Positions 10,405-23,728 of a DNA stretch of 64,000 bases are shown piece by piece (the first letter of the stretch is position 1; each line of letters begins with the position of its first letter). The notes below the pieces were generated by a model. It saw nothing but the letters and a program-made list of their open reading frames with translations, had not been told where the DNA came from and did no database searches. The position numbers and the translations under genes are program-made. Origin of the DNA: Hypanus sabinus (Eukaryota). The stretch lies in contig NC_082708.1 in the NCBI RefSeq assembly GCF_030144855.1, forward strand, positions 170,562,001 through 170,626,000, written 5' to 3'.

Positions 10405-11795
10405 CTATGCTACATCGATGACTGCATTGGTGCTGCTTCCTGCAACCACACTGAACTTGTCAGCTTCCTCCACTTTGCCTCCAAGCCCCAACTGCCCTCA
10501 AATTTACCTGGTCCATTCTCGACACCTCCCTCCCTTCCTCGATCTCACTGTCTCTATCTCTGGAGGCAGCTTCTCCACTGATGTCTATCATAAACCCACA
10601 GACTCTTACAGCTACCTGGACTATACCCCCTCCCACCCTGTTACATATAAAGACACCATTCCCTTCACTCAGTATCTCCGTTTCTGCCACATCTGTTCTC
10701 AGGATGATGCTTTTCATTCTTGAATGAAGGAGTTGTCTCCCTTTTTTGAAAAAAGTGCTTCCTTCCTCCACCATCAACACTGCTCTCAATCGCATCTCTT
10801 CCATTTCATGCAAGTCTGTTCTTACCCCAACCTCCCACCACCCTACCAGGGATAGGGTTCCTCTTGTCCTCACCTACCACCCTACCAGCCTCAGCAACCA
10901 GCAGATAATTCTCCGGAACTTCTGCCAGCTCCACCTCCCTCCCCACTCCCCACTTTCATCTTTTCTCAGGGATCACTCCCTACATGACTCCCTTGTCCAT
11001 TCATCTCTAATCACTGATCTCCCTCTTGGCACTGATCCTTGCAAGTGGAATAAGTGCCCCTACACCATTTCCCTCACCAGCATCTTTCCAGTTGAGGCGA
11101 CACTTCACCGCTGAGCCTGTTGGGGTCATATACTATGTCCGGCGCTCCCGATGTGGCCTCCTGTATATCGGTAAAAACCGATGTAAATTGTGAGACTGCT
11201 TCACCATGCATCTACACTCCATCCGCAAGAAGAAGCAGGATACCCCAGTGATCACTTTTTTAATTCCACTTCCGATTGCCATTCTGATATGTCAATCCAT
11301 GGCCTCTACTGTCATGATGAGGCCATACTTACGATTGAGGAACAGCATCTTCTGGGTAACATCCAACCTGATAGCATGAACATCAACTTCTCGAACTTCT
11401 GATAATACCCCCCTCCCCCTTCACCATTCTCCATCCCCTTTTTCCTCTCTCACCTTCTCTCTTGCCTGCCCATCTAGTGATCACACCCCCTTTTCTTTCC
11501 TCCATGACCTTCTTCTATTAGATTCCCCCTTCTCCAGCCTCATATCTCTTTCACCCATCAACTTCCTAGCTCTTTACTTCATCCTTCCCCTTCCTGGTTT
11601 CACCTATCAGCTTGTGTTTCGCTCTCCCCTCCCCCATCTTTACTACTCTTATTTTCTTCCTCCAGTCCTGCCTATGGGCTCGGGCCTGAAACATGGACTG
11701 TACTCTTTTCCAGTAGATGCTGTCCGGCCTGCTGAGTTCCTCAAGCATTTTGAGTGTATTGCTTGGATTTTCAGCAGCTGCAGATTTTCTCTTGT
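10405..11795 (+). mobile_element. Penelope-like retroelement, 5'-truncated (RT C-terminus, GIY-YIG endonuclease, pLTR)
   Basis: FLDLTVSI..TDVYHKPTDSYSYLDY.SH..IPFTQYLR and RVPLVLTYHP motifs; VIYY..CGLLYIG GIY-YIG motif near 11125-11172. Confidence 0.88.
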
Positions 11796-12124
11796 TTGTC
11801 AATGGATTTATGGTTGTACTTTTATGCCAGCTATAGTGACAGAGGAATAAACAGGAGGTTCTGTTGCTGAGAGCCAGATTACCATTTTGTCTATTACCTT
11901 TCAGGTGGCAGGGTCAAGGCCAGCTTGGATGGAGTCCCCAGCATTCTTAAGTGGGAAAGGGAGCACTCAGAGTTCATGGTCCATGTCAGTATCTATCACA
12001 TAGGTAGGGAGGGTGATGATGTCCTGCAAAGTGAGTTCTGTGAGTTAGGAGCTAGGTAAGTTAAACCCTCCACGGGTTGATCACTATTCATGTCAAATTC
12101 AAGTGAGGCCAGAAACAGGAAGAT

Positions 12125-12780
12125 AGTAAGACTGTAAGACATAGGAGCAGAATTAGGCCACTTGGCCCTTCGAGTGTCCTCCACCATTCTATCCCGGCTG
12201 ATTTATTATCCCTCTCAACTCCATTATCTTGCCTTCCCCCCATAATCTTTGAACCCCCCCCCAAACTAATGAAGAACCTATCAGCCTCCACTTTAAAATT
12301 TACTCAATGACCTAGTCTCCACAGCTATTCGTGGCAATGAAATCCACAGAGTCACCACTCTTGGTCTAAACACATTCTTCCTCATCTCTGTTCTAAATGG
12401 ATGTCCCTCTACTCTGAGGCTGTGGCTAAAATAATTCTTCTTGTGTCCTCTGGTCCTAGACTCCCCCACTATAGAGTTATATAGTTATATAGACTCCCCC
12501 ACTATATATTCTCTTCACATCCATTTTATACAGGCCTTTCAATATTCAATAGGCTTCTATGAGATAGCCCCCATTCTTCTAAACTCCAGCGAGTACAAGC
12601 CCACATCAAATGTTAGCATTTTCATTCCTGGGATCACTTTTGTGAACCTTCTCTGGACCCTCTCCAAATTGAAAAATCTTTTCTTAGATAAGGGGCTCAA
12701 AACTGCTCACAACACTTCAAGTGCAGTTTAACCAATGCCTTATACAGTCTCAGAATTACATCCTTGTTCTTATATTCCAG
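12125..12780 (-). mobile_element. CR1 LINE 3' fragment
   Basis: Same 3' UTR and RT C-terminal sequence as the other CR1 copies. Confidence 0.75.
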
Positions 12781-13332
12781 TCCTGATGAAGGGTCTCAGC
12801 CCAAAGCATCAACTGTTTACTCTTTTCCATAGATGCTGCTTGGCCTTCTGGGTTCCTCCAGCATTTTGTGTGTGTTGTTTTGGATTTCCAGCATCTTATA
12901 TTCTAGAGCTCTTGCAACATCTGCTAATATTACATTTCCCTTTTTTTTAATCACCAACTCAACCTGCAAGTTATCACTTATGGCAGGGGTTCCCAATCTT
13001 TTTTATGCCATGGATCAAAACCAATAAGCAAGGGGTCTGTGGATGCCAGTTTGGGAAGCCCTGCTCTTGGGAATCCTGCAGAATGGCTCACAAACACGAA
13101 GAAATCTGCAGATGCTGGAAATTCAAGCAACACACACAAAATGCTGGTGGAACGTAGCAGGCCAAGCAGCATCTATAGGAAGAAATACAGTCAATGTTTT
13201 GGGCCGAGACCCTTCATCAGGATTAACTGAAAGAAAAGATAGTAAGAGATCTGAAAGCCGAATGGCTCACTAGTCTCTTTGCACCTTGGAGTTTTGAAAA
13301 TAAAAAATAGTCTACACTTTTTTTCTTCTAGC

Positions 13333-14129
13333 TGTTACGAACCCACAGGTTTCGTTTACTGTGGACTGTCACTTTAAAAGAGCGCTTTGTTGAGGCAGAA
13401 CTATGATGTTGTTCACTGACTGACTCACAGCTTGTTTACCTTTAAAACATGGACACAGACAGTCACAGTCAGGAATCAGAAGAAGAGAGAGAGAGAGAGG
13501 AACAAACCTGGAAAAGGTAGCAGCTCCAGCTTGTAGAAGCTGGGAATTTGGAACTCTGCTATACCCACAAGAGTGGGTTGATTATCAATCTACTGCACAT
13601 CAAATGTGTGTCTGTCACTTTGTATAATCCAAAGGAGTGGATTTAGGAATGTCCTGTGGGACCACTCGAAGTTAACCCTTGCATGGGTATGTTATGTGGT
13701 AATCGCTTGAAGATGACATCCTCTTGATAGATCACCTTGGTGGTAATTCATATGTGGATTTGGAACAGCCTGTTGCACGATCTTCGACAACTGATATTTA
13801 TTAATTACCATGGTGGAACCTGTGGAATTCGATGTGATTGCTTTCTCTTTGTGTTTTACCTGGGATTACAAATATTTCTCTCCCATCATTTATTCTGTGG
13901 ATGAACTGAACTTTCATGCTTTACCATTTCAAGGCTCTAAGCCTTGCTCCCCCAGGCTCGGTAGTTTGGGAGTTATATTTACACATATTGATACACATAA
14001 CATTGTTAACTTTTGGTTATCCTGTTTAAGTTACAATATTATAAGTAGTTAATAATAGAGTTTTAACATCAAAACCAAGTGTGAACTCTGTTGCTGCTGG
14101 TTCGTTTCTGAATTGTTACAGATCAATCA
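13333..14129 (+). repeat. Left LTR
   Basis: TGTTACGAACCCACAGG...AATCA followed by a 4-nt spacer and the PBS. Confidence 0.9.
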
Positions 14130-17100
14130 AAATTGCGGGCTCGTCTGGGATATGAACAATTGAGGGTTTATTGATTGATTAATTATCGATTTGATTGAGG
14201 AAATCCATTTTGATTTACTTGTCTGTGTAAATCGGAAGCAATGGATATTGAGGCATTTCTGGAAGCACTGGATCCTGGGGAATTAGAGTCACCAGAAAAG
14301 ACGAAGTGGTGGCTATTGCTAAAAAGCTGAGACTTGTTTCAATAAATGGTCTATGAGAAAGCCAGAGATTCAGAGGAAGATAGCTGAGTACTGTATTTCT
14401 TTGGGGAAGTTTGATGCTGAGAGATTAGAATTGTTCCCTGAACGTAAACCAGTTACCCATGAGCTCCAGGTACGGCTGGACCAATTAAGGTTCGACCGAG
14501 AGAGACTTAGATTAGAAGCTGCAGAAACAGACAAACAGAGGGAAGAAGCAGAAAAAAAGTATTTGAAGCTGAGGAAACAGAAAAACAGAGGCTGGAAGCA
14601 GAAAGACAGAGGCTGTTTGATTTGGAAAAGATAGAGAAAATGCAGCAAAGGGGTTTACTGATTGACCCTGGTGAGAATTTGTTGCCAATCAGGAAGCAAA
14701 ATTGGTCCCTCCATTTAATGAACCCAAGGTTGATAAATACTTTCAGTATTTTGAGAAGGTGGCTCAAAGTCAAAATTGGCTGGAAGGAAGCTGGTCTCTC
14801 TTGTTATGGACTATATTTATGGGTAAGGCTCAACAAGCTTACTCTGCTTTCTCAATTAGAGATGCTGCTAATTATGAGACAGTGAAACGGGCCATATTCA
14901 AAACCTATGAATTGGTTCCAGAAGCCTATAGGCAAAGGTTTAGAAGTTTGAGGAAAACTGTGAGTCAGACACGTGGAATTTGCTTATGAGAAGTTTGTGT
15001 GTTTTGAAAGATGGTGCAATCTGAAAATGTGAATGATGTTTTTAACAGCTTGAAAGAGTTGGTTTTATTTGAAAATTTTAAAGGGTGTGTCCCTGATGAC
15101 ATAAAGACCTATTTAGTTGAAAGGGATGCTGCCATTTTGCAGGAGTCTGCTAGATTAGCAGATGAGTTTTATTTAACCCACAAGGTTGAGTTTACCACAA
15201 GTAGGTGCTTCCAAAAGAGTAGCAGGGATAACCAGGATAAACCAGAAATTAAATCTGGAGCTAGTGACAAAAGTAAGGATGAAGGGAAGCAAGTGAAGGA
15301 GAAATATTCTGGTCTTACTTGTTACTATTGAGAGAAAGCTGGTCATGTTATGGCTAATTGTTACATCCTGAAGAAGAAAATGGTAAAGGAGGCAGCCCCA
15401 AATGCTTGTAGTCTGTATGTTGAAACACCTATAAACCCACAGGGGTCTGCACGTTCTGATGAGGCTCACTTAAGGACTGAGAAGTCTGACCGAGTTAAGA
15501 AAAGATTTGATCATTTTGTGTCAGATTGGTTTATATCAGTAAAGGAAGGGTCAACCAGTAAAAATTCTTTGAGATATTGGGGCTTCTCAATCACTTATAT
15601 TAGACAGTGTTGTGAAGTTTAATGATGAGACTGACACTGGTGAGGTAAATCTTATTAAAGGCATCGGGGGTGACGTTTTTCCTGTACCTCTGCACAAAGT
15701 TATTTTGCAGTTGGAGTTAGTGACAGGACTTGCTAAAGTAGGACTCCGGCCCAGTTTACCAATTGTTGGTGTTTCTTTGCTGTTGGGAAATGACCTAGCA
15801 GATGGTAATGTTGTTCCAGCAGTGCAGCTGACAGCTAAGCCAATCACTGATGTTTCCAAAACGGATTCTAACATTCATCCTTCCTGCGCAGTGATTTGAA
15901 GTATGGCTAAGAAGTCAGTCAATGTAGATAGTTCTGTGCAGCACAATTCTGCTACCATCCTAGACAAAATCGGGATTCAGGGTGTAATGACTTGTCAGGG
16001 ACGTTTCTGCCTTCATTTTTTCAACAGGATTCAGATAGTAAATCTGATGGGAAAGATTTATCTTTGTCTAGGAAGGAATTTATAGCAGAACAGAACTGAT
16101 TATATCAAGGATGAACTGTTAATGAGGAAGTAGAGACCACCTGCTATACCTGCAAGTGAGGAATGGGCGATTGTTCACCAAGTGGTAGTTCCAAAAGTTT
16201 ATAGGAAGGAGATTTTAACTTTGCCCCACAGTATGCCCTTAAGTGGCCATTTTGGTGTGAATAGAACTGTAAACAGGATCATGAAAGACTTTTTCTGGTC
16301 TAATTTGAGGAAAGATGTTGTGACCTTTTGCAGGAATTGTCACACTTGTCAGGTTGTGGGTGAACCTAATCAGCTCAATACAATGGCCCCACTCCGGCCT
16401 GTACCTGCATTCGGTGAACCTTTTTCTAAAGTTATTGTGGATTGTGTTGGCCCATTGCTGAAGACTAAAGCTGGCCATCAGTATTTGCTGACTATCATGT
16501 GTACAGCATCCGGATTCCTGGAAGCCATACCTCTCAGAAATATCAAAGCTAAAACTGTGTCAAACACTCTCATAAAGTTTTTTACTTTACTTGCTTTGCC
16601 TAAAGAAATCCTGTCTGATCAAGGAAGTAATTTTACATCTGGATTATTCCAGCAGGTAGTTTATGAACTGGGAGTTAAACAAATTACATCATCTGCGTAC
16701 CATCTGGAGTCACAAGGGGCTTTAGAAAGATTTCATTCTGCCCTCAAAACAATGATTAAGACATATTGTGTTGAAAATGAAAAAGACTGGGATGAAGGTG
16801 TATATTTGATTTCATTCACAGTGAGAGAAGTGGTACAGCAATCTCTGGGCTTTAGCCCCTTTAAACTTGAATTTGGTCATAGAGTGAGGGGACCTTTGAC
16901 TTTGTTAAAGGCACAGTGGATTAATAAAGACTTACATATTAATTTGTTAGCCTGTGTGCTGACATTCAAGGACAGGCTGTACAAAGTTTGCGAATTAGCT
17001 AAGCAAAACTTGAGAACAGCTCAGGGGAAAATGAAGGTTTGGTATCATCAACAGGTGAGAAAGAGACTTTTTAAACTGGGAGATAAGGTTTTAATACTGT

Positions 17101-18934
17101 TACTAACAAGTTCAAACCCTCTTCAGGTGAGATTTTTAGGTCCTTATGAGATTGTATCTCAGGTTAGTGATGTGAATTTCAGAATCAAAACACCTGATCA
17201 TAAATGAAAAACTGTGTTTTGTCATATCAATATGATAAAACCTTATTATGAGAATATTACCTTTGGTGAGACACATCCAGCAGCTGTGGTGGCTGCTGGC
17301 AGCCACAGTGAGACTGAAGACCCTGGGAAGGTAATTTTTGATTCTGCTGAGAATCATTTTAAACCAAACATCTTCCCAGTAAGACTAACAAATTCGGCTA
17401 TTTTAGAAAACATCGATAACAAGTTGGCCCATTTGCAGCCACAGCAAAGACAACAAATGAAAGAATTAATTTTGAAGTTTAAAAATTTATTTTCTGATAT
17501 TCCAAATCGAACCACAGTCACATCACATGATGTGGATGTTGGAGATGGCAAACCAATCAAGCAACATCCCTATCATATGAACGTGGAAAAATGTAAATTG
17601 GCTGAGCAAGAAATTGAATATATGCTGAAAAATGGTATTATTAGGCCTTCACCTTCAAATTGGATTTCACCTTGCATTATTGTACCTAAACCTGATGGTA
17701 GTGTTAGATTTTGCACTGATTGTAGGAAGGTAAATGCAGTAACAAAAAACAAATGCTTATCCTATCCCCAGAGAGGATGATTGCATAGATAAGGTTGGAA
17801 AAGATAAGTTTCTTACAAAGATTGATCTGTTAAAAGGATATTGGTGTGTTCCATTGACAGACAGAGGTAGAGAAATTTCTGCTTTTGTGACACCTCTGGG
17901 TTGTATGAATACAATATTTTGCTGTTTGGGATGAAAAATGCTCCTGGAACGTTCCAGAGAATGATTAATTCTGTGAATCAAGGGTTAGAACACACAGAAG
18001 CCTGTATTGACAATTTAGTCATGGGAAATGACACTTGGGAAGCTCATATCTCTGCAGTAGAAAAGCTGTTTAATAAGCTTTCCCAGCCCAACCTTACAGT
18101 TAATTTAGCTAAGAACAAATTTGGCCATGCTACTGTAACCTATCTTGGTTATATAGTGGGTCAAGGTGAATTAGCTCCTGTTTAGGCAAAAGTCCAGGCA
18201 ATTCCCGAAGTTCCGATTTCAATTGGGAAAAAGGTTCTTCGAAGATTTCTGTGAATGCTTGGATATTATCATAAGTTCTGTAAGAACTTTGCTGATAATG
18301 CTCCTCCTTTGAACGACCTCCTAAAGAAGGTTGAAAAGTTTGTTTGGACAGAACCTTTTCAGGAGGCATTTGATCAATTGAAAGCCATTTATGTCACCAA
18401 CCTGTGCTCAGGGCACCTGACTTTGCAAATCCCTTCTCTATAGCTGTTGATGTCACTGATGAAGCTGCAAGAGCAGTATTATTACAAATGGGTAACAATG
18501 ATGTTGAACATTCTGTAGCTTACTTTTCAAGGAAATTTAATGAACATCAAAGAAATTACTCCACCATAGAGAAAAGATTATTGTCACTTAGATTTGCAGC
18601 ATTTTGATGTTTATGATTGCCCAGCTCAGAAACCACTTGAGGTTTATACAGAGCATAATCCATTGGTGTTTTTGCATAAGATGAAGGATAAAAACAGAAG
18701 ATTGTTAAACTGGTTTTGCAATAATATATTATGATAATTCACATTAAAGTCAAGGATAATGTAATTGCAGATTGACTTTCCAGATGTTAAGCATGCAATG
18801 TATGGAATAGAATCTGTGTTTTTTAAATATGTATTTGCAAAATGCTGTGTAGTAGTTGCACCTGTATTGGTTTATATATTGTAGTTTGCTCTTCTAGATC
18901 AAATGTTTCTACTTTTGGGGGAAGTGGTGGAGAA

Positions 18935-19000
18935 TCTAGTGGTATGATTCTCACTTGAGGTGCGAGAGGTACCAGTTTTCAAATCCCGGACGAGCCCCCG
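18935..19000 (+). pseudogene. tRNA-Pro copy (about nt 11 to the CCA end) embedded in the retrotransposon
   Basis: TCTAGTGGTATGATTCTCACTTGAGGTGCGAGAGGT...TTCAAATCCCGGACGAGCCCCCG matches vertebrate tRNA-Pro but lacks the first ~10 nt, so the acceptor stem cannot form. Confidence 0.88.
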
Positions 19001-19004
19001 ATTT

Positions 19005-19793
19005 TGTTATGAATTGTAACAATTTAGAAACGAACCAGCAGAAATAGAGTTCATGCTTGGAGTCTGGTTTTGATGTTAAAACCACTATTTTATTAGTAAT
19101 ATTTCTAATATTGTAACTTAAACAAGATAAACAATAGTAAACAGTGTTATGTGTAAATATAACTCCCAAACTATCGAGCATGGAGTAACAAGCCATAGAT
19201 TCTTGAAATGGTAAAGCATGGAAGTTCAGTTCATCTACAGAAGAAATGAGAGAGGTATTTATAATCCCAGATAAAACATAGAGAGAAGGCAATTACGTTG
19301 AATTCCACATGTTCCATGATGCTAATTAATAAATATCAGTTGTCAAAGATCCTCCGTCGAGCTGTTCCAAATTCACATAGGAATTACCACCAAAGTGATC
19401 TGTCACAGGGATGTAATCTTCAATGGGTTCCCACATAACTTACCCATGCAAGAGTTAACTTTGAGTGGTCCCACAAGACATTCCTGAATCCACTCTTTTG
19501 GATTATACAAAGTGAGAGACACACATTTGATGTGCAATGGATCGATAATCAACCCACTCTTGTGGGTGTAGCAGAGTTCCAAATTCTCAGCTTCGACAAG
19601 CTGGAGCTGCTACCTTTTCCTGGTTCGCCCCTCTCTCCCTGCTCTTCTGATTCCTGACTGCGACTGTCTGTGTCCTTGTTTTAAAGGTAAACAAGCTGCG
19701 AGTTAGTCAGTGAACAACATCATAGTCCTGCCTCACTGAAGCACTCCTTTAAAGTGACAGTCTACAGTAAATGAAACCTGTGGGTTTGTGACA
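19005..19793 (-). repeat. Right LTR, in inverted orientation
   Basis: The reverse complement (TGTCACAAACCCACAGGTTTCATTTACTGTAGACTGTCACTTTAAAGG...) aligns along the full length of 13333-14129. Confidence 0.92.
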
Positions 19794-19799
19794 TACCAA

Positions 19800-20182
19800 A
19801 GTACATGTCCAAACACCTCTCTACACTGTTTTCTCTCTACTCCTCTTTGCTCATTGTCCCCACTTGTCTAAGCCCTTCTGTAGTCTCCCAATTTCCTTAA
19901 CACTCCCTGCCCCTCCATCTATCTTTGTAACATCTGCAAACATGGCCACAAATCCATCAATTCCATCATCCAAATCAATGAGATATAACAGGAAAAGAAG
20001 TGGTTGCAATAATGGCCCATGTAGAACCCCACTAATCACTGGCAGCCAACCAGAATAGGCCCCCTTTATTCACAAACTTTGCCTTCTGCCAGTCAGCCAA
20101 TCTTCTACACATCTTAATATCTTTCTTGTAAGGTCATGGGGTCTTAACTTGTTAAGTAGCTTCATATGCAGGACATTGTCAA
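19800..20182 (-). mobile_element. CR1 LINE RT fragment
   Basis: SGV..G..L.PLLFLLYLIDLDDG...FAD.TKI motif. Confidence 0.75.
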
Positions 20183-23100
20183 TGTTATGGTCCAGTCCGT
20201 GAAGTCCGCATTCTGGTTCATGGCCCGGTCCATCAGATTCAGATTCAGTTTATTGTCATTTAGAAACCACAAATGCAATGCAGTTAAACAATGAGATAAA
20301 CGTTCCTCCAGAATGATAGCACAAAAGCATATGACAAAACAGTCTACACCAGAAAATCCATATAACATTTGGCAATCCCCAATCCAGAGTCTGGAGAGGC
20401 TGCTGCGTATTAATATCGTGCTACCATATTCATGTGTTCCCCAGAAAGGAGCTCCAAATCCACCAGACAAAATAAGACCAAAAACTAAAGCTACAAGTCC
20501 TGCACAAAACCACATAGTTACAACATATAGCTGCAACAGTGCAAAGAATAGCATAATTTATAAAAAAAAACAGACCTTGGGCACAGTAAAAATAGTCCAA
20601 AGATGTTAAAAGACTACAAGTTCGAAAGAAACCACCACACAGATCCCACAAGTCATCAAGGTCCCGATTTGACTCGTCATCCCATGCTGGCGGCAGAAGG
20701 AAATGCCCCCGCTGTGGACTTCCACAGTGCCGCCCGACTCAGCCTCGCAGACACAGCACACAGTGAAAGGTTTGTTGAACCCAGCCTCGCAGATGCAGTA
20801 CACAGTGAAAGTGACCTGACTGCCGCGGACTCCGAGTCTGTCGAACCTCCAAGCCTCCAACCATCCCCTCCGGCACAGCTTCTCCGAGCACATTCCTTTG
20901 CTGAGCGTATTAAAACACCCCTGCCAATGGCCATCGGCAACATGACCCCGAGGACTGGGGGTCTGTTCTTCCCAGCAGAGACCCGGAACTCATAGCAGGA
21001 GCATCAACGAAGAAGGTCTTCCTGGAGATTTCCAGATGTTACTCCGTGCTCCCACGTCTGTTTTCAACCGATTATAATTGCGCACGGCACCCCGCTTCAC
21101 AAATAAGAGATAATCAGCTCCGGAGTGGCCGCTGCAAGCTGCATCGCGCCGCCATTTTGGATCGTTATTTAACTAATTATTTAACATCGTGCCTTATTCC
21201 AGGTTTTCCTCTTTTCCCTTGTTCTGTTGGCTGCTCCAATTGAGGCACCTGATTCTTGTTTTGGGCTGGCTACATAAATAGCTCCTGGGTTCAGCTTCAT
21301 TTGCTGGCTGGTGGGTGGGATTTGATGACTGTTGATTCGTGCCGTTTGGCGGGAAGTGGGCTGAGGTTTGATTAGCCACGAGCACTGGATTGGTCTGTGA
21401 GATGAAGGGTGGAGGAACTGCTGGGGTGTTGTGGGGGACATTCTGTGGAAATATGGACTGATGGCCTGTATAGATCCGGAATGATATTCATACATGGTTC
21501 CTTACAAACTCCGATAGGATGGCAGGGAGGGAGACTGATGGTGACAGCAGTAGCACAGAGTTTGAGTGGGAAGAGGTGGGGAGAGGGACTAAGAATAGGA
21601 AGGTGATGGGTCAGAAAAGAAAAAAAGGTGGGTCTAGTGTAGGTGGATCAGAAAATGAGGGAAGAGAAATTAAGAAGAAGGGCCCGAGGGCAAATTTGCT
21701 AAATGTAGTGGTAAGCTTTGAGGGGGAAGGCAGAGTAAAGAAAATCAATCTGCTTAATTTAACAAAAATCATCAGTTGGTAAGTAGGGGAAGTGAGCCAT
21801 GCGAGAATTTTAGGAGATTGAAACCTGCTGATAGGATGTAAAACTAAAGAGCAGATTGAGAAGGCACTGATGGTGACTAATGTTGGGAAAGTCAACATGT
21901 CCAGGGTTGTAAGAGTTGGAGCACAAAGGGTCAATGGTTGCAAGGGATGATCTCCGGGGTTCCCCTCAGTGTTAATATGAAGGAGCTAGTGGAGAACTTA
22001 AGGGTGAGGAATAGTTCAGTGAAGAATGTGAAAAGAATGACAAGGGGAGCAGAGAAAAGCGAGACTGAAGCTGTTCTGGTAGAATTTGAGGATAAGCTGC
22101 CTCCAAAGGAGTTGTATTTTGGATTTCTGAGATACAATGTAAGAGAATATATACCAAAACCTATGAGATGTTTCAATTGCCAGGAGTTTGGGCATGTGGC
22201 CAAAGTGTGCAAAGGAAAGAGAAGATGTGTAAGGTGTGGTGGGGAACATGAATATGGAAAATGTGGAGAGGGAGTGGGACCAGAGTGCTCTAATTGTGGA
22301 GGTAACCATAGTGTAGCATACTGGGGATGTGAAGTGGTGAATAAAGAGGTGGAGGTGCATGGATAGAGAAGAAATTGGTGACCTTTATAGCAGGAATGGT
22401 AAATGCAACTTGTGAGATCAAATCTAAAACTAAAAGGATTCAGATTATTGTGAAAGCTGCAGAGTACCATTTGTGTATGATAGGATTAAAATGGGAAGGG
22501 TAAATAATGAACTCAGGGTACAGTTAAGTCAAGAGACAGTATGTGTGGCTTGATATTACTAATAATGCTACTTCTTCAATGGAATGCAAGAAGCCTGATT
22601 AGTAATGGACAAGATTTCAAGCAGTTTATAGCTAGTAGGAGAGAAAAGCCAGATGTTGTGTGTATCCAGGAGACATGGTTAAAACATAATTTAGATTTTG
22701 TTTTATATGGTTATGAGGCAGTAAGGCGAGACAGGAGAAAGGGGGGAGGAGAAGGATGTGCAACTTATGTAAAAGCAAGGCAATTCTTATAGAATACTAG
22801 GTATAGGAAGTGAACAAGAGCATGTGGTAGTAAAAGTATGGGCTGAAAGGAAAGAGTTTGTGATTATGAACTATTATAATCCATGCAGACGGCCAGAGTT
22901 AAACAAGCTTGCAGTGATACAAGGGTAGAAGATTAGTAACATTGTTTGGTGTGGTGATTTTAATGGACAGTGTATTATGGGGGAGCAACAGAACAGACAT
23001 CAATGGTCAAGTAAAAGAGGAGTTGCTAGATGAGAAGTATTTAGTGTGTCTAAATGATGGCAGTAGTACTAGAATTGATGTTAATACAGGTAAAGAATCT

Positions 23101-23486
23101 GTGCTTTATCTTACATTAGTATCAAACTCTATTGCATCAGTATGTGAGTGGTTAGTGTACCAAGAAGGAACTGTAAGGAGTGATCATTACCCAATCTGGT
23201 GCAAGATAAATATTTCTGCCTCATTGGTTACAGAGAATATAGGTGGGAAATGGATCCTTCAGAAAGCCAATTGGGAGAAGTTTCTGGAAAAAAATGATAG
23301 ATGTCTGAGTCAGGTCAGTGATGAGATGGACATAGAAACACTTGACAGCATATTAAAACAAGGTATAATATCAGCTGCATTAGAATTCATTCCTAAAAGT
23401 AAATGAGGAATGAAGAGTAATACCATAGTGGGATGATAATTGTAAGGATGCAGTGAGAAATAGAAATAAGGCTTTTAAATTGGTTA

Positions 23487-23488
<2 letters not shown>

Positions 23489-23561
<73 letters not shown>

Positions 23562-23728
23562 CTTTATTCATCCCCAAGGGGAAATTCAACATTTTTCCAG
23601 TCCCATACACTTATTGTAGCAAAACTAATTACATACAGTATTTAACAGTATAAATATGATATACATCTAAAATCACCCTCCCAAAAAGCATTAATAAATA
23701 GCTTTTAAAAAGTTCTTAAATAGTTTTT
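23489..23728 (-). repeat. (AGAT)n microsatellite forming the tail of a short LINE 3' end (Rex1-like) inserted in the I-clade LINE
   Basis: About 18 perfect AGAT units at 23489-23561 directly adjoining CTTTATTCATCCCCAAGGGGAAATT (AATAAA on the minus strand). Confidence 0.7.

Follow-up and report, generated by a model that had tools for sequence, protein, structure and literature searches.

Anatomy of the locus

The window, that is, the whole 64,000-nt stretch of Hypanus sabinus DNA analysed here, carries at 13333-19793 a decayed Gypsy element of Gmr1-like organization in which the two LTRs are inverted to each other. The insertion comprises the following features, given with their window coordinates and strand.

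13329..13332 (no strand): left target-site duplication (TSD); TAGC in the window, TACC in the duplicate copy
13333..14129 (+): left LTR (U3-R-U5) in normal orientation, from LTR comparison
14134..14157 (+): ordinary tRNA-Pro PBS of 18 nt, extended by 6 nt that are mismatched opposite 58 and match tRNA 57-53
14323..15400 (+): gag with stops and frameshifts; weak SCAN-like stretch (SCAN E 0.007, under the cut-off)
15573..15899 (+): likely protease region, broken; placed by its position between gag and integrase
16134..17207 (+): integrase (H2C2 zinc finger, rve core), 5' of RT, from domain matches
17208..18790 (+): reverse transcriptase (RT) and RNase H, split among several frames; RVT_1 at 17743-18185, RT_RNaseH at 18374-18607
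18917..18926 (+): PPT and TG, the first two letters of the expected 3' LTR, from other family loci
18927..18934 (+): 8-nt junction filler, from the sequence at the joint
18935..19000 (+): copy of mature tRNA-Pro, positions 11-76; GAG anticodon 18957-18959, A58 at 18982, CCA-like tail
19001..19004 (-): U5-to-PBS spacer, identical to that of the ordinary PBS
19005..19793 (-): right LTR, inverted, with the U3 end outermost, from LTR comparison
19794..19797 (no strand): right TSD, TACC, from flank comparison

The pol region is ordered protease (by position only), integrase, RT and RNase H. No Pfam family matched the likely protease region, and the SCAN-like stretch of gag reached 16.6 bits against a cut-off of 27. 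An integrase ahead of RT and RNase H is reported for Gmr1 (PMC2582038), and a SCAN-like gag stretch is described for Gmr1-like elements (PMC4592553); the window element resembles these in its integrase before RT/RNase H, its weak SCAN-like gag, and the presence of a PBS, a PPT and a short, 4-bp TSD. Likened to Gmr1 as published through its pol order, PBS, PPT and TSD, it would be classed as a Gmr1-like Ty3/Gypsy element. The window copy is an aberrant member of this family: its LTRs are inverted, with no direct pair, and a tRNA copy replaces the start of the 3' LTR, whereas its siblings are normal and have direct LTRs. Among 28 other loci of the family, 23 have a TGT-type LTR start directly after the PPT and the remainder are decayed or deleted; no flipped LTR matched at any of the 28. 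The window copy is about 12% decayed.

DIRS elements carry inverted terminal repeats around gag-RT-RH, and in the window element, too, inverted ends flank gag-RT-RH. It differs from DIRS in possessing a DDE integrase and a TSD, and its inversion is an accident, not the family plan. No tyrosine recombinase was found among the 10 frames scanned in the window element, which together with the DDE integrase and the TSD rules out a DIRS-like identity. Two ordinary-looking features lie outside the insertion, namely two short repeats, inverted to each other, immediately to the left of the element (12781-13222) and a TAGA microsatellite (23468-23565).

The inverted unit is a single insertion

A segmental duplicate located 150 kb away has both the flanks and the joint in common with the window insertion. 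The 4-bp TSD, which reads TACC/TACC in the duplicate and TAGC/TACC in the window, encloses both inverted LTRs. In a tree of 18 LTRs, built from the four of the insertion and its duplicate and 14 others of the family, those four clustered together (95/95), a grouping present in 96% of the bootstrap trees. The left and right window LTRs are 87.5% identical, and other family LTRs are equally close. The inverted unit was integrated as a single piece, because the joint lies at the PPT/U3 boundary and there is one TSD and one LTR lineage; that the whole unit sits within one TSD goes beyond the initial annotation of this DNA. The window locus is a dead accident, and retransposition by the normal route is impossible for this copy, since it lacks a direct 3' LTR.

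Identity between window 10771-20233 and the duplicate (L051) is 92-94% in the left part but falls to 88% in the right, a difference that suggests one half underwent gene conversion later.

A tRNA-Pro copy in PBS register at the joint

The joint consists of the PPT GGGGGAAG (18917-18924), TG (18925-18926), the filler GTGGAGAA (18927-18934) and then tRNA-Pro in sense orientation, with tRNA position 11 at 18935 and the gene end at 18997, followed by a CCG tail (18998-19000; CCA in the duplicate), the spacer ATTT (19001-19004) and the reverse-complement LTR (19005-19793). This is the arrangement that the initial annotation had read here, and it is borne out by the sequence: 65 of the 75 letters of tRNA-Pro lie between the element body and the flipped LTR, with 55/62 aligned columns identical to a tRNA-Pro-AGG gene of this genome (L033) and one inserted base. 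The 5' portion taken alone (tRNA 1-52), which no PBS match reaches, has a score of 53, whereas 30 shuffled 64-kb windows searched on both strands gave 30 at best. Both the window copy and the duplicate have a GAG anticodon.

The CCA, the spacer and the LTR end of the flipped copy stand in a register identical to that of the ordinary PBS. At position 58 the flipped copy carries the tRNA's own base, where the element's own PBS is mismatched, indicating that the long piece was copied from the tRNA and not from the PBS. A start at about nucleotide 11 had been proposed, and the best alignment does begin there; the exact end, however, floats, since tRNA 8-11 reads the same as TGGT at 18925-18928, and the stop can be placed only within 8-11.

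Neither ARAGORN nor Rfam called a tRNA on the window or the junction, and none is expected of a piece without the 5' acceptor strand. A tRNA-Pro gene at 18935-19000 was rejected: a complete cloverleaf and a T-run terminator are absent, and a CCA-like tail is present, whereas the genes have no encoded CCA. For the filler, one-mismatch matches inside the element were within chance, and none was found on the minus strand of the duplicate. Homology at the window joint amounts to 2-4 nt at most.

Ordinary PBSs match the primer to position 53

The ordinary PBS of the window element, at 14134, matches tRNA 76-53, in agreement with the roughly 24 nt noted initially, and is mismatched opposite 58. In a sample of 48 sites anchored on the PBS only, which includes some tandem duplicates and was drawn with a pattern favouring the 24-nt form, 42 ceased to match at 51-53 and continued into ordinary leader; the other six were longer, ending at tRNA 8, 13, 38, 38, 39 and 42. 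A subfamily in which the extended PBS is the norm, raised at the outset as a counter-explanation, is thus not what the sample contains (a 24-nt and not a 65-nt match in 42/48). The base opposite 58 in the ordinary PBSs (L210-L252, n=42) was A in 20, T in 19, G in two and C in one.

Lentiviral and spumaviral PBSs are adjoined by a primer over-extension sequence (PMC13191261, section 10), which the ordinary PBSs here, including window 14134-14157, resemble in matching the tRNA to 53 (42/48 sampled, a sample selected on extension, so that this is not the share in the genome). They differ in that the base opposite 58 varies.

Long tRNA-Pro copies recur with two stop clusters

Through DNA and pattern searches we identified, among the matches listed, at least 40 separate CCA-tailed tRNA-Pro copies in several LTR families. 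From 52 candidates, 14 were dropped (two duplicates, ten genes, gene-like sequences or pseudogenes, one without the 3' half and one without an LTR after it), and two from the PBS-anchored sample were added. For the majority of the 40, repeats and a TG start lying 3-6 nt past the CCA are taken as the sign of an LTR, and L101, L110, L150 and L160 are counted with a putative LTR; for one pattern search 100 of 150 matches were listed, and a minority of the tRNA-Pro gene matches on unplaced contigs were examined.

The start positions of these 40 copies, among the matches listed, fall into two clusters, with 16 at 7-13, 20 at 32-42, one at 18 and three at 1, 45 and 49. Local alignment and short homologies blur the copy ends by 1-4 nt, and starts scatter over 7-13 and 32-42. 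The recurrence of the nucleotide-11 start, which had been put forward as a check, was observed as starts near position 10 in 16/40, and the second, larger cluster with a stop at 37/38 is additional to it. Six copies among the matches listed start exactly at 38, the base next to G37. In the 33 copies found with 3'-anchored patterns, the interval 14-31 held one start against 13.4 expected (p 9e-7).

Other arrangements were also seen. In L058:7934-10000 and L178:7927-8992 (oriented), the CCA end abuts directly on reverse-complement RNase H/RT with no LTR between, which suggests internal-site priming or a deletion afterwards. L163/L008 (G000:C24:100.99M) has an LTR end followed by sense tRNA-Pro 28-76 and no flipped LTR behind, and solo LTR-plus-tRNA pieces without a TSD occur, for example L053.

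Inverted and direct units with target-site duplications

Besides the window, five inverted units carry a TSD, namely L055 (ATGG, terminal base changed), L056 (CTGG), L146 (AGAG), L174 (TGTA) and L176 (AGGGT), bringing the total to six with the window included. Direct-LTR units with internal loss and a TSD are L066 (ATTG) and L177 (AGAGG). Of the 15 inverted-arm loci other than the window that were inspected, five had a TSD, one was a direct unit and nine had none. Short tRNA/LTR homologies are present at switch points (8 nt in L174, 6-7 nt in L066, TGG in L146), and fillers occur at joints (8 nt in the window, 6 nt in L055, 3 nt in L060). Because six inverted units carry target duplications, it is likely that inverted over-extension products were integrated.

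L169 and L174 are mini inverted units at different sites whose switch point is the same, some 85 nt inside U3, in a place where tRNA 38-45 and U3 are homologous over 8 nt.

Copies bear marks consistent with primer tRNA modification

At position 34, the 17 spliced long copies among the matches listed have G in 12 (one of them, L055, ambiguous through an inserted base), T in two, C in three and A in none. The tRNA-Pro genes found have the anticodons AGG, TGG and CGG only; no tRNA-Pro-GGG gene was found in the genome, the 5/5 GGG-pattern matches being non-genes, and the GAG of the window is one further change away from GGG. According to PMC8062790, inosine 34 is read as G in cDNA and eukaryotes are without tRNA-Pro-GGG. 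The origin of G34 in copied inosine, initially offered as a weak clue, is now a strong one.

Position 58 departs from the tRNA base in 10/38 copies among the matches listed (8 G, 2 T), a figure inflated by search patterns in which this position was free, and positions 57 and 59 depart in 0/38. Among copies found by DNA likeness, where 58 was not free, it departs in 4/13 against a background of 3% (p 0.001). Position 37 shows a weak excess, departing in 4/18 (p 0.036).

In published work, G9 of human tRNA-Pro-AGG is virtually fully m1G (PMC7293042), m1G leads to stops more than to mismatches (PMC5066629), zebrafish tRNAs in general show m1G9, m1G37, m1A58 and I34 signatures (PMC11417395), and an m1G37 signal is absent from human tRNA-Pro-AGG in mim-tRNAseq (PMC8062790). 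Through these human and zebrafish papers we infer m1G9, m1G37, m1A58 and I34 for the primer here, and the stop clusters at 7-13 and 32-42 would fit m1G9 and m1G37. Alternatively, RT could have stalled at the hairpins that the D and anticodon arms form. The initial annotation had RT reading through m1A58 and the anticodon loop and stopping near G9/G10; the read-through and the stop are supported, with m1G9 preferred to G10 because of the virtually full methylation of human G9 (PMC7293042); in the window copy, which keeps A58, the A58 that RT crossed may have been methylated or unmethylated. The copies together likely record the chemistry of the primer tRNA. The idea, drawn from PMC8062790, that IGG primers pass 37 more easily gained no support, the proportion with G34 (12/17) being close to the AGG share of the intronless genes examined (10/15).

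One copy, L177, has A34, starts at 18 and is identical over 74 nt, including the 18-nt intron, to an intron-bearing AGG gene. The loci concerned are L177 (G000:C87:61.58M) and L254 (G000:C31:3.05M); the element is young and has three LTRs, 99.7-100% alike, and the TSD AGAGG. The piece, which ends in CCA, is an unspliced, unedited precursor tRNA, copied either as primer or as a template switched to, and as the sole copy with A34 and an in-between stop it acts as an internal control.

An intron after 37 is unusual in animal tRNA-Pro. In this genome, tRNA-Pro genes with such an intron are present at L041-L050, L130, L158, L159, L255 and on many unplaced contigs, and ARAGORN miscalls intron-bearing tRNA-Pro genes as Arg or Ser.

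Proposed formation and alternatives

The window sequence has the features of over-extended plus-strand strong-stop DNA, with the complement of the tRNA joined to U5 via CCA in PBS register, and the signs of a processed tRNA template, namely the CCA of the duplicate and, among the matches listed, G34 in 12/17 and A34 in none; the initial annotation had not assigned the tRNA copy to the plus strand. On its anatomy, the PBS register with CCA, the single TSD, the one LTR lineage and the recurrence with two stop clusters and G34, we consider it probable that the locus is one dead insertion, in which plus-strand strong-stop DNA over-extended into a mature tRNA primer and a template switch then linked it to a second plus strand. 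In this reading, the tRNA modifications and the path of the switch are what we infer. PPT-primed RT would copy U3-R-U5, continue beyond A58 and G37, place C opposite inosine 34 and stall at m1G9. The 40-nt surplus would be unable to pair at the PBS, blocking normal elongation of the strong-stop strand. A full-length plus strand may then stall two letters beyond the PPT, at the point where it starts to displace the strong-stop DNA ahead of it, and switch to the free 3' tail, whereupon both plus strands would copy one another. The product would have a U3 end at each side, acceptable to integrase, and its insertion would generate the 4-bp TSD. Genome-wide, continuation of the tail on the minus strand may yield direct-LTR elements with internal loss (L066, L177), and continuation on a plus-sense strand may yield inverted units. 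A second template of either DNA or RNA would fit the sequence, and a stalled full-length plus strand appears to be the simplest route for the window.

The main rival dispenses with the stalled plus strand and has the overrun strong-stop DNA jump to another genomic RNA, at the 3' end left by RNase H cleavage at PPT/U3, where it would prime a new minus strand. Sequence alone does not separate the two routes, and we regard this one as unlikely. RNase H cuts at the PPT/U3 boundary, the joint is no more than two letters away from it, and the fillers at the window, L055 and L060 joints would fit an end-to-end jump; however, two letters beyond the cut site are unexpected, and the left end needs a complete U3 and a clean TG start with a TSD. 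The RNA template has no complete U3, so further transfers would be required.

Two separate insertions, a normal element and an opposite LTR-plus-tRNA fragment fused later through deletion or repair, would explain why the window LTRs are no closer to each other than to other family LTRs, and solo fragments of this kind without a TSD do exist (L053). Yet a single 4-bp TSD spans both ends, the joint coincides with the PPT/U3 boundary, the LTRs form one cluster and five further inverted units have a TSD, which makes such a fusion highly unlikely.

Less likely still is a self-copying subfamily that is regularly built with inverted LTRs and the long tRNA piece. L169 and L174 do have one joint in common at different sites, but its 8-nt homology makes that joint able to recur; the only other copy of the window joint is the segmental duplicate with its identical flanks, joints differ among the other long copies, and 42/48 PBSs are ordinary.

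Scarcely credible is that a SINE head, a tRNA gene or a LINE-made tRNA retrocopy landed here, or that the element targeted a tRNA gene, a counter-explanation raised from the start: the genome does contain full-length but decayed pseudogenes of tRNA-Pro, among them L093 with GGG, but the piece lacks positions 1-10 and an intact tRNA 5' end, has no T-run, tail or TSD of its own, and carries its CCA in PBS register at U5, which refutes this origin at the window locus, whereas genuine genes end in T runs without CCA and the CCA-to-element joint is common to at least 40 copies across several LTR families.

Relation to known products

The reading as over-extended strong-stop DNA has counterparts in HIV-1, in which plus-strand DNA products P1-P5 run from U5 into the primer tRNA and end at modified bases, namely A58, 55/54 and position 37 (PMC13191261, section 10; PMC8599865). 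The copies here are alike in being plus-strand extensions from U5 into the primer tRNA that would end at modified bases; they differ in being genomic and Gypsy-derived, and many extend beyond 37 to a stop near 9, which has no counterpart among P1-P5. The 3' tail of overrun strong-stop DNA cannot pair at the PBS (PMC11251516, PMC8599865), such cDNA is said to be non-integrable (PMC8599865), and HIV-1 products past position 54 are considered incapable of transfer or integration (PMC13191261, PMC8599865). By contrast, six inverted and two direct units here carry TSDs.

Complex LTR-retrotransposon insertions arising via template switching were described by Sabot and Schulman in 2007 (PMC1950507). 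Their cases resemble ours in that an abnormal RT switch yields a fused molecule inserted as one unit, and differ in that theirs share an LTR in direct order, whereas here the plus strands would be joined head to head via the primer tRNA. In a literature search with most subscription journals outside its scope, we found no published account of integrated tRNA overruns or inverted-LTR products. The overrun products themselves are already known for HIV-1; what is likely new here are genomic, Gypsy-derived overruns with a stop near 9, likely integrated.

Implications

Over-extended strong-stop DNA of HIV-1, known in vitro and in cells, has been described as leading nowhere; in the present animal genome, products of this type have become fixed, frequently flanked by TSDs, and a rescue route to integration therefore likely exists. 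As a broader model, which we advance tentatively and at somewhat less than even chances, primer overrun would be routine in these Gypsy elements, whose PBSs match to 53, and long overruns would be rescued by plus-to-plus switches into inverted elements with two U3 ends that are competent for integrase. The copies would then amount to a datable germ-line fossil tRNA-sequencing library of I34, m1A58, m1G37 and m1G9, together with one young unspliced, unedited precursor used in the particle, and the inverted units would readily supply hairpin RNA directed at the family they belong to.

These findings account for a type of insertion with inverted LTRs that would be divided into two elements in repeat annotation. 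What was copied is the tRNA molecule itself, not the gene encoding it; where the copies end and where they mismatch therefore likely tells which tRNA served as primer and how it was modified at the time of insertion. The same mining is possible in any assembled genome, so that the age and conservation of germ-cell tRNA modifications may be tested from DNA alone.
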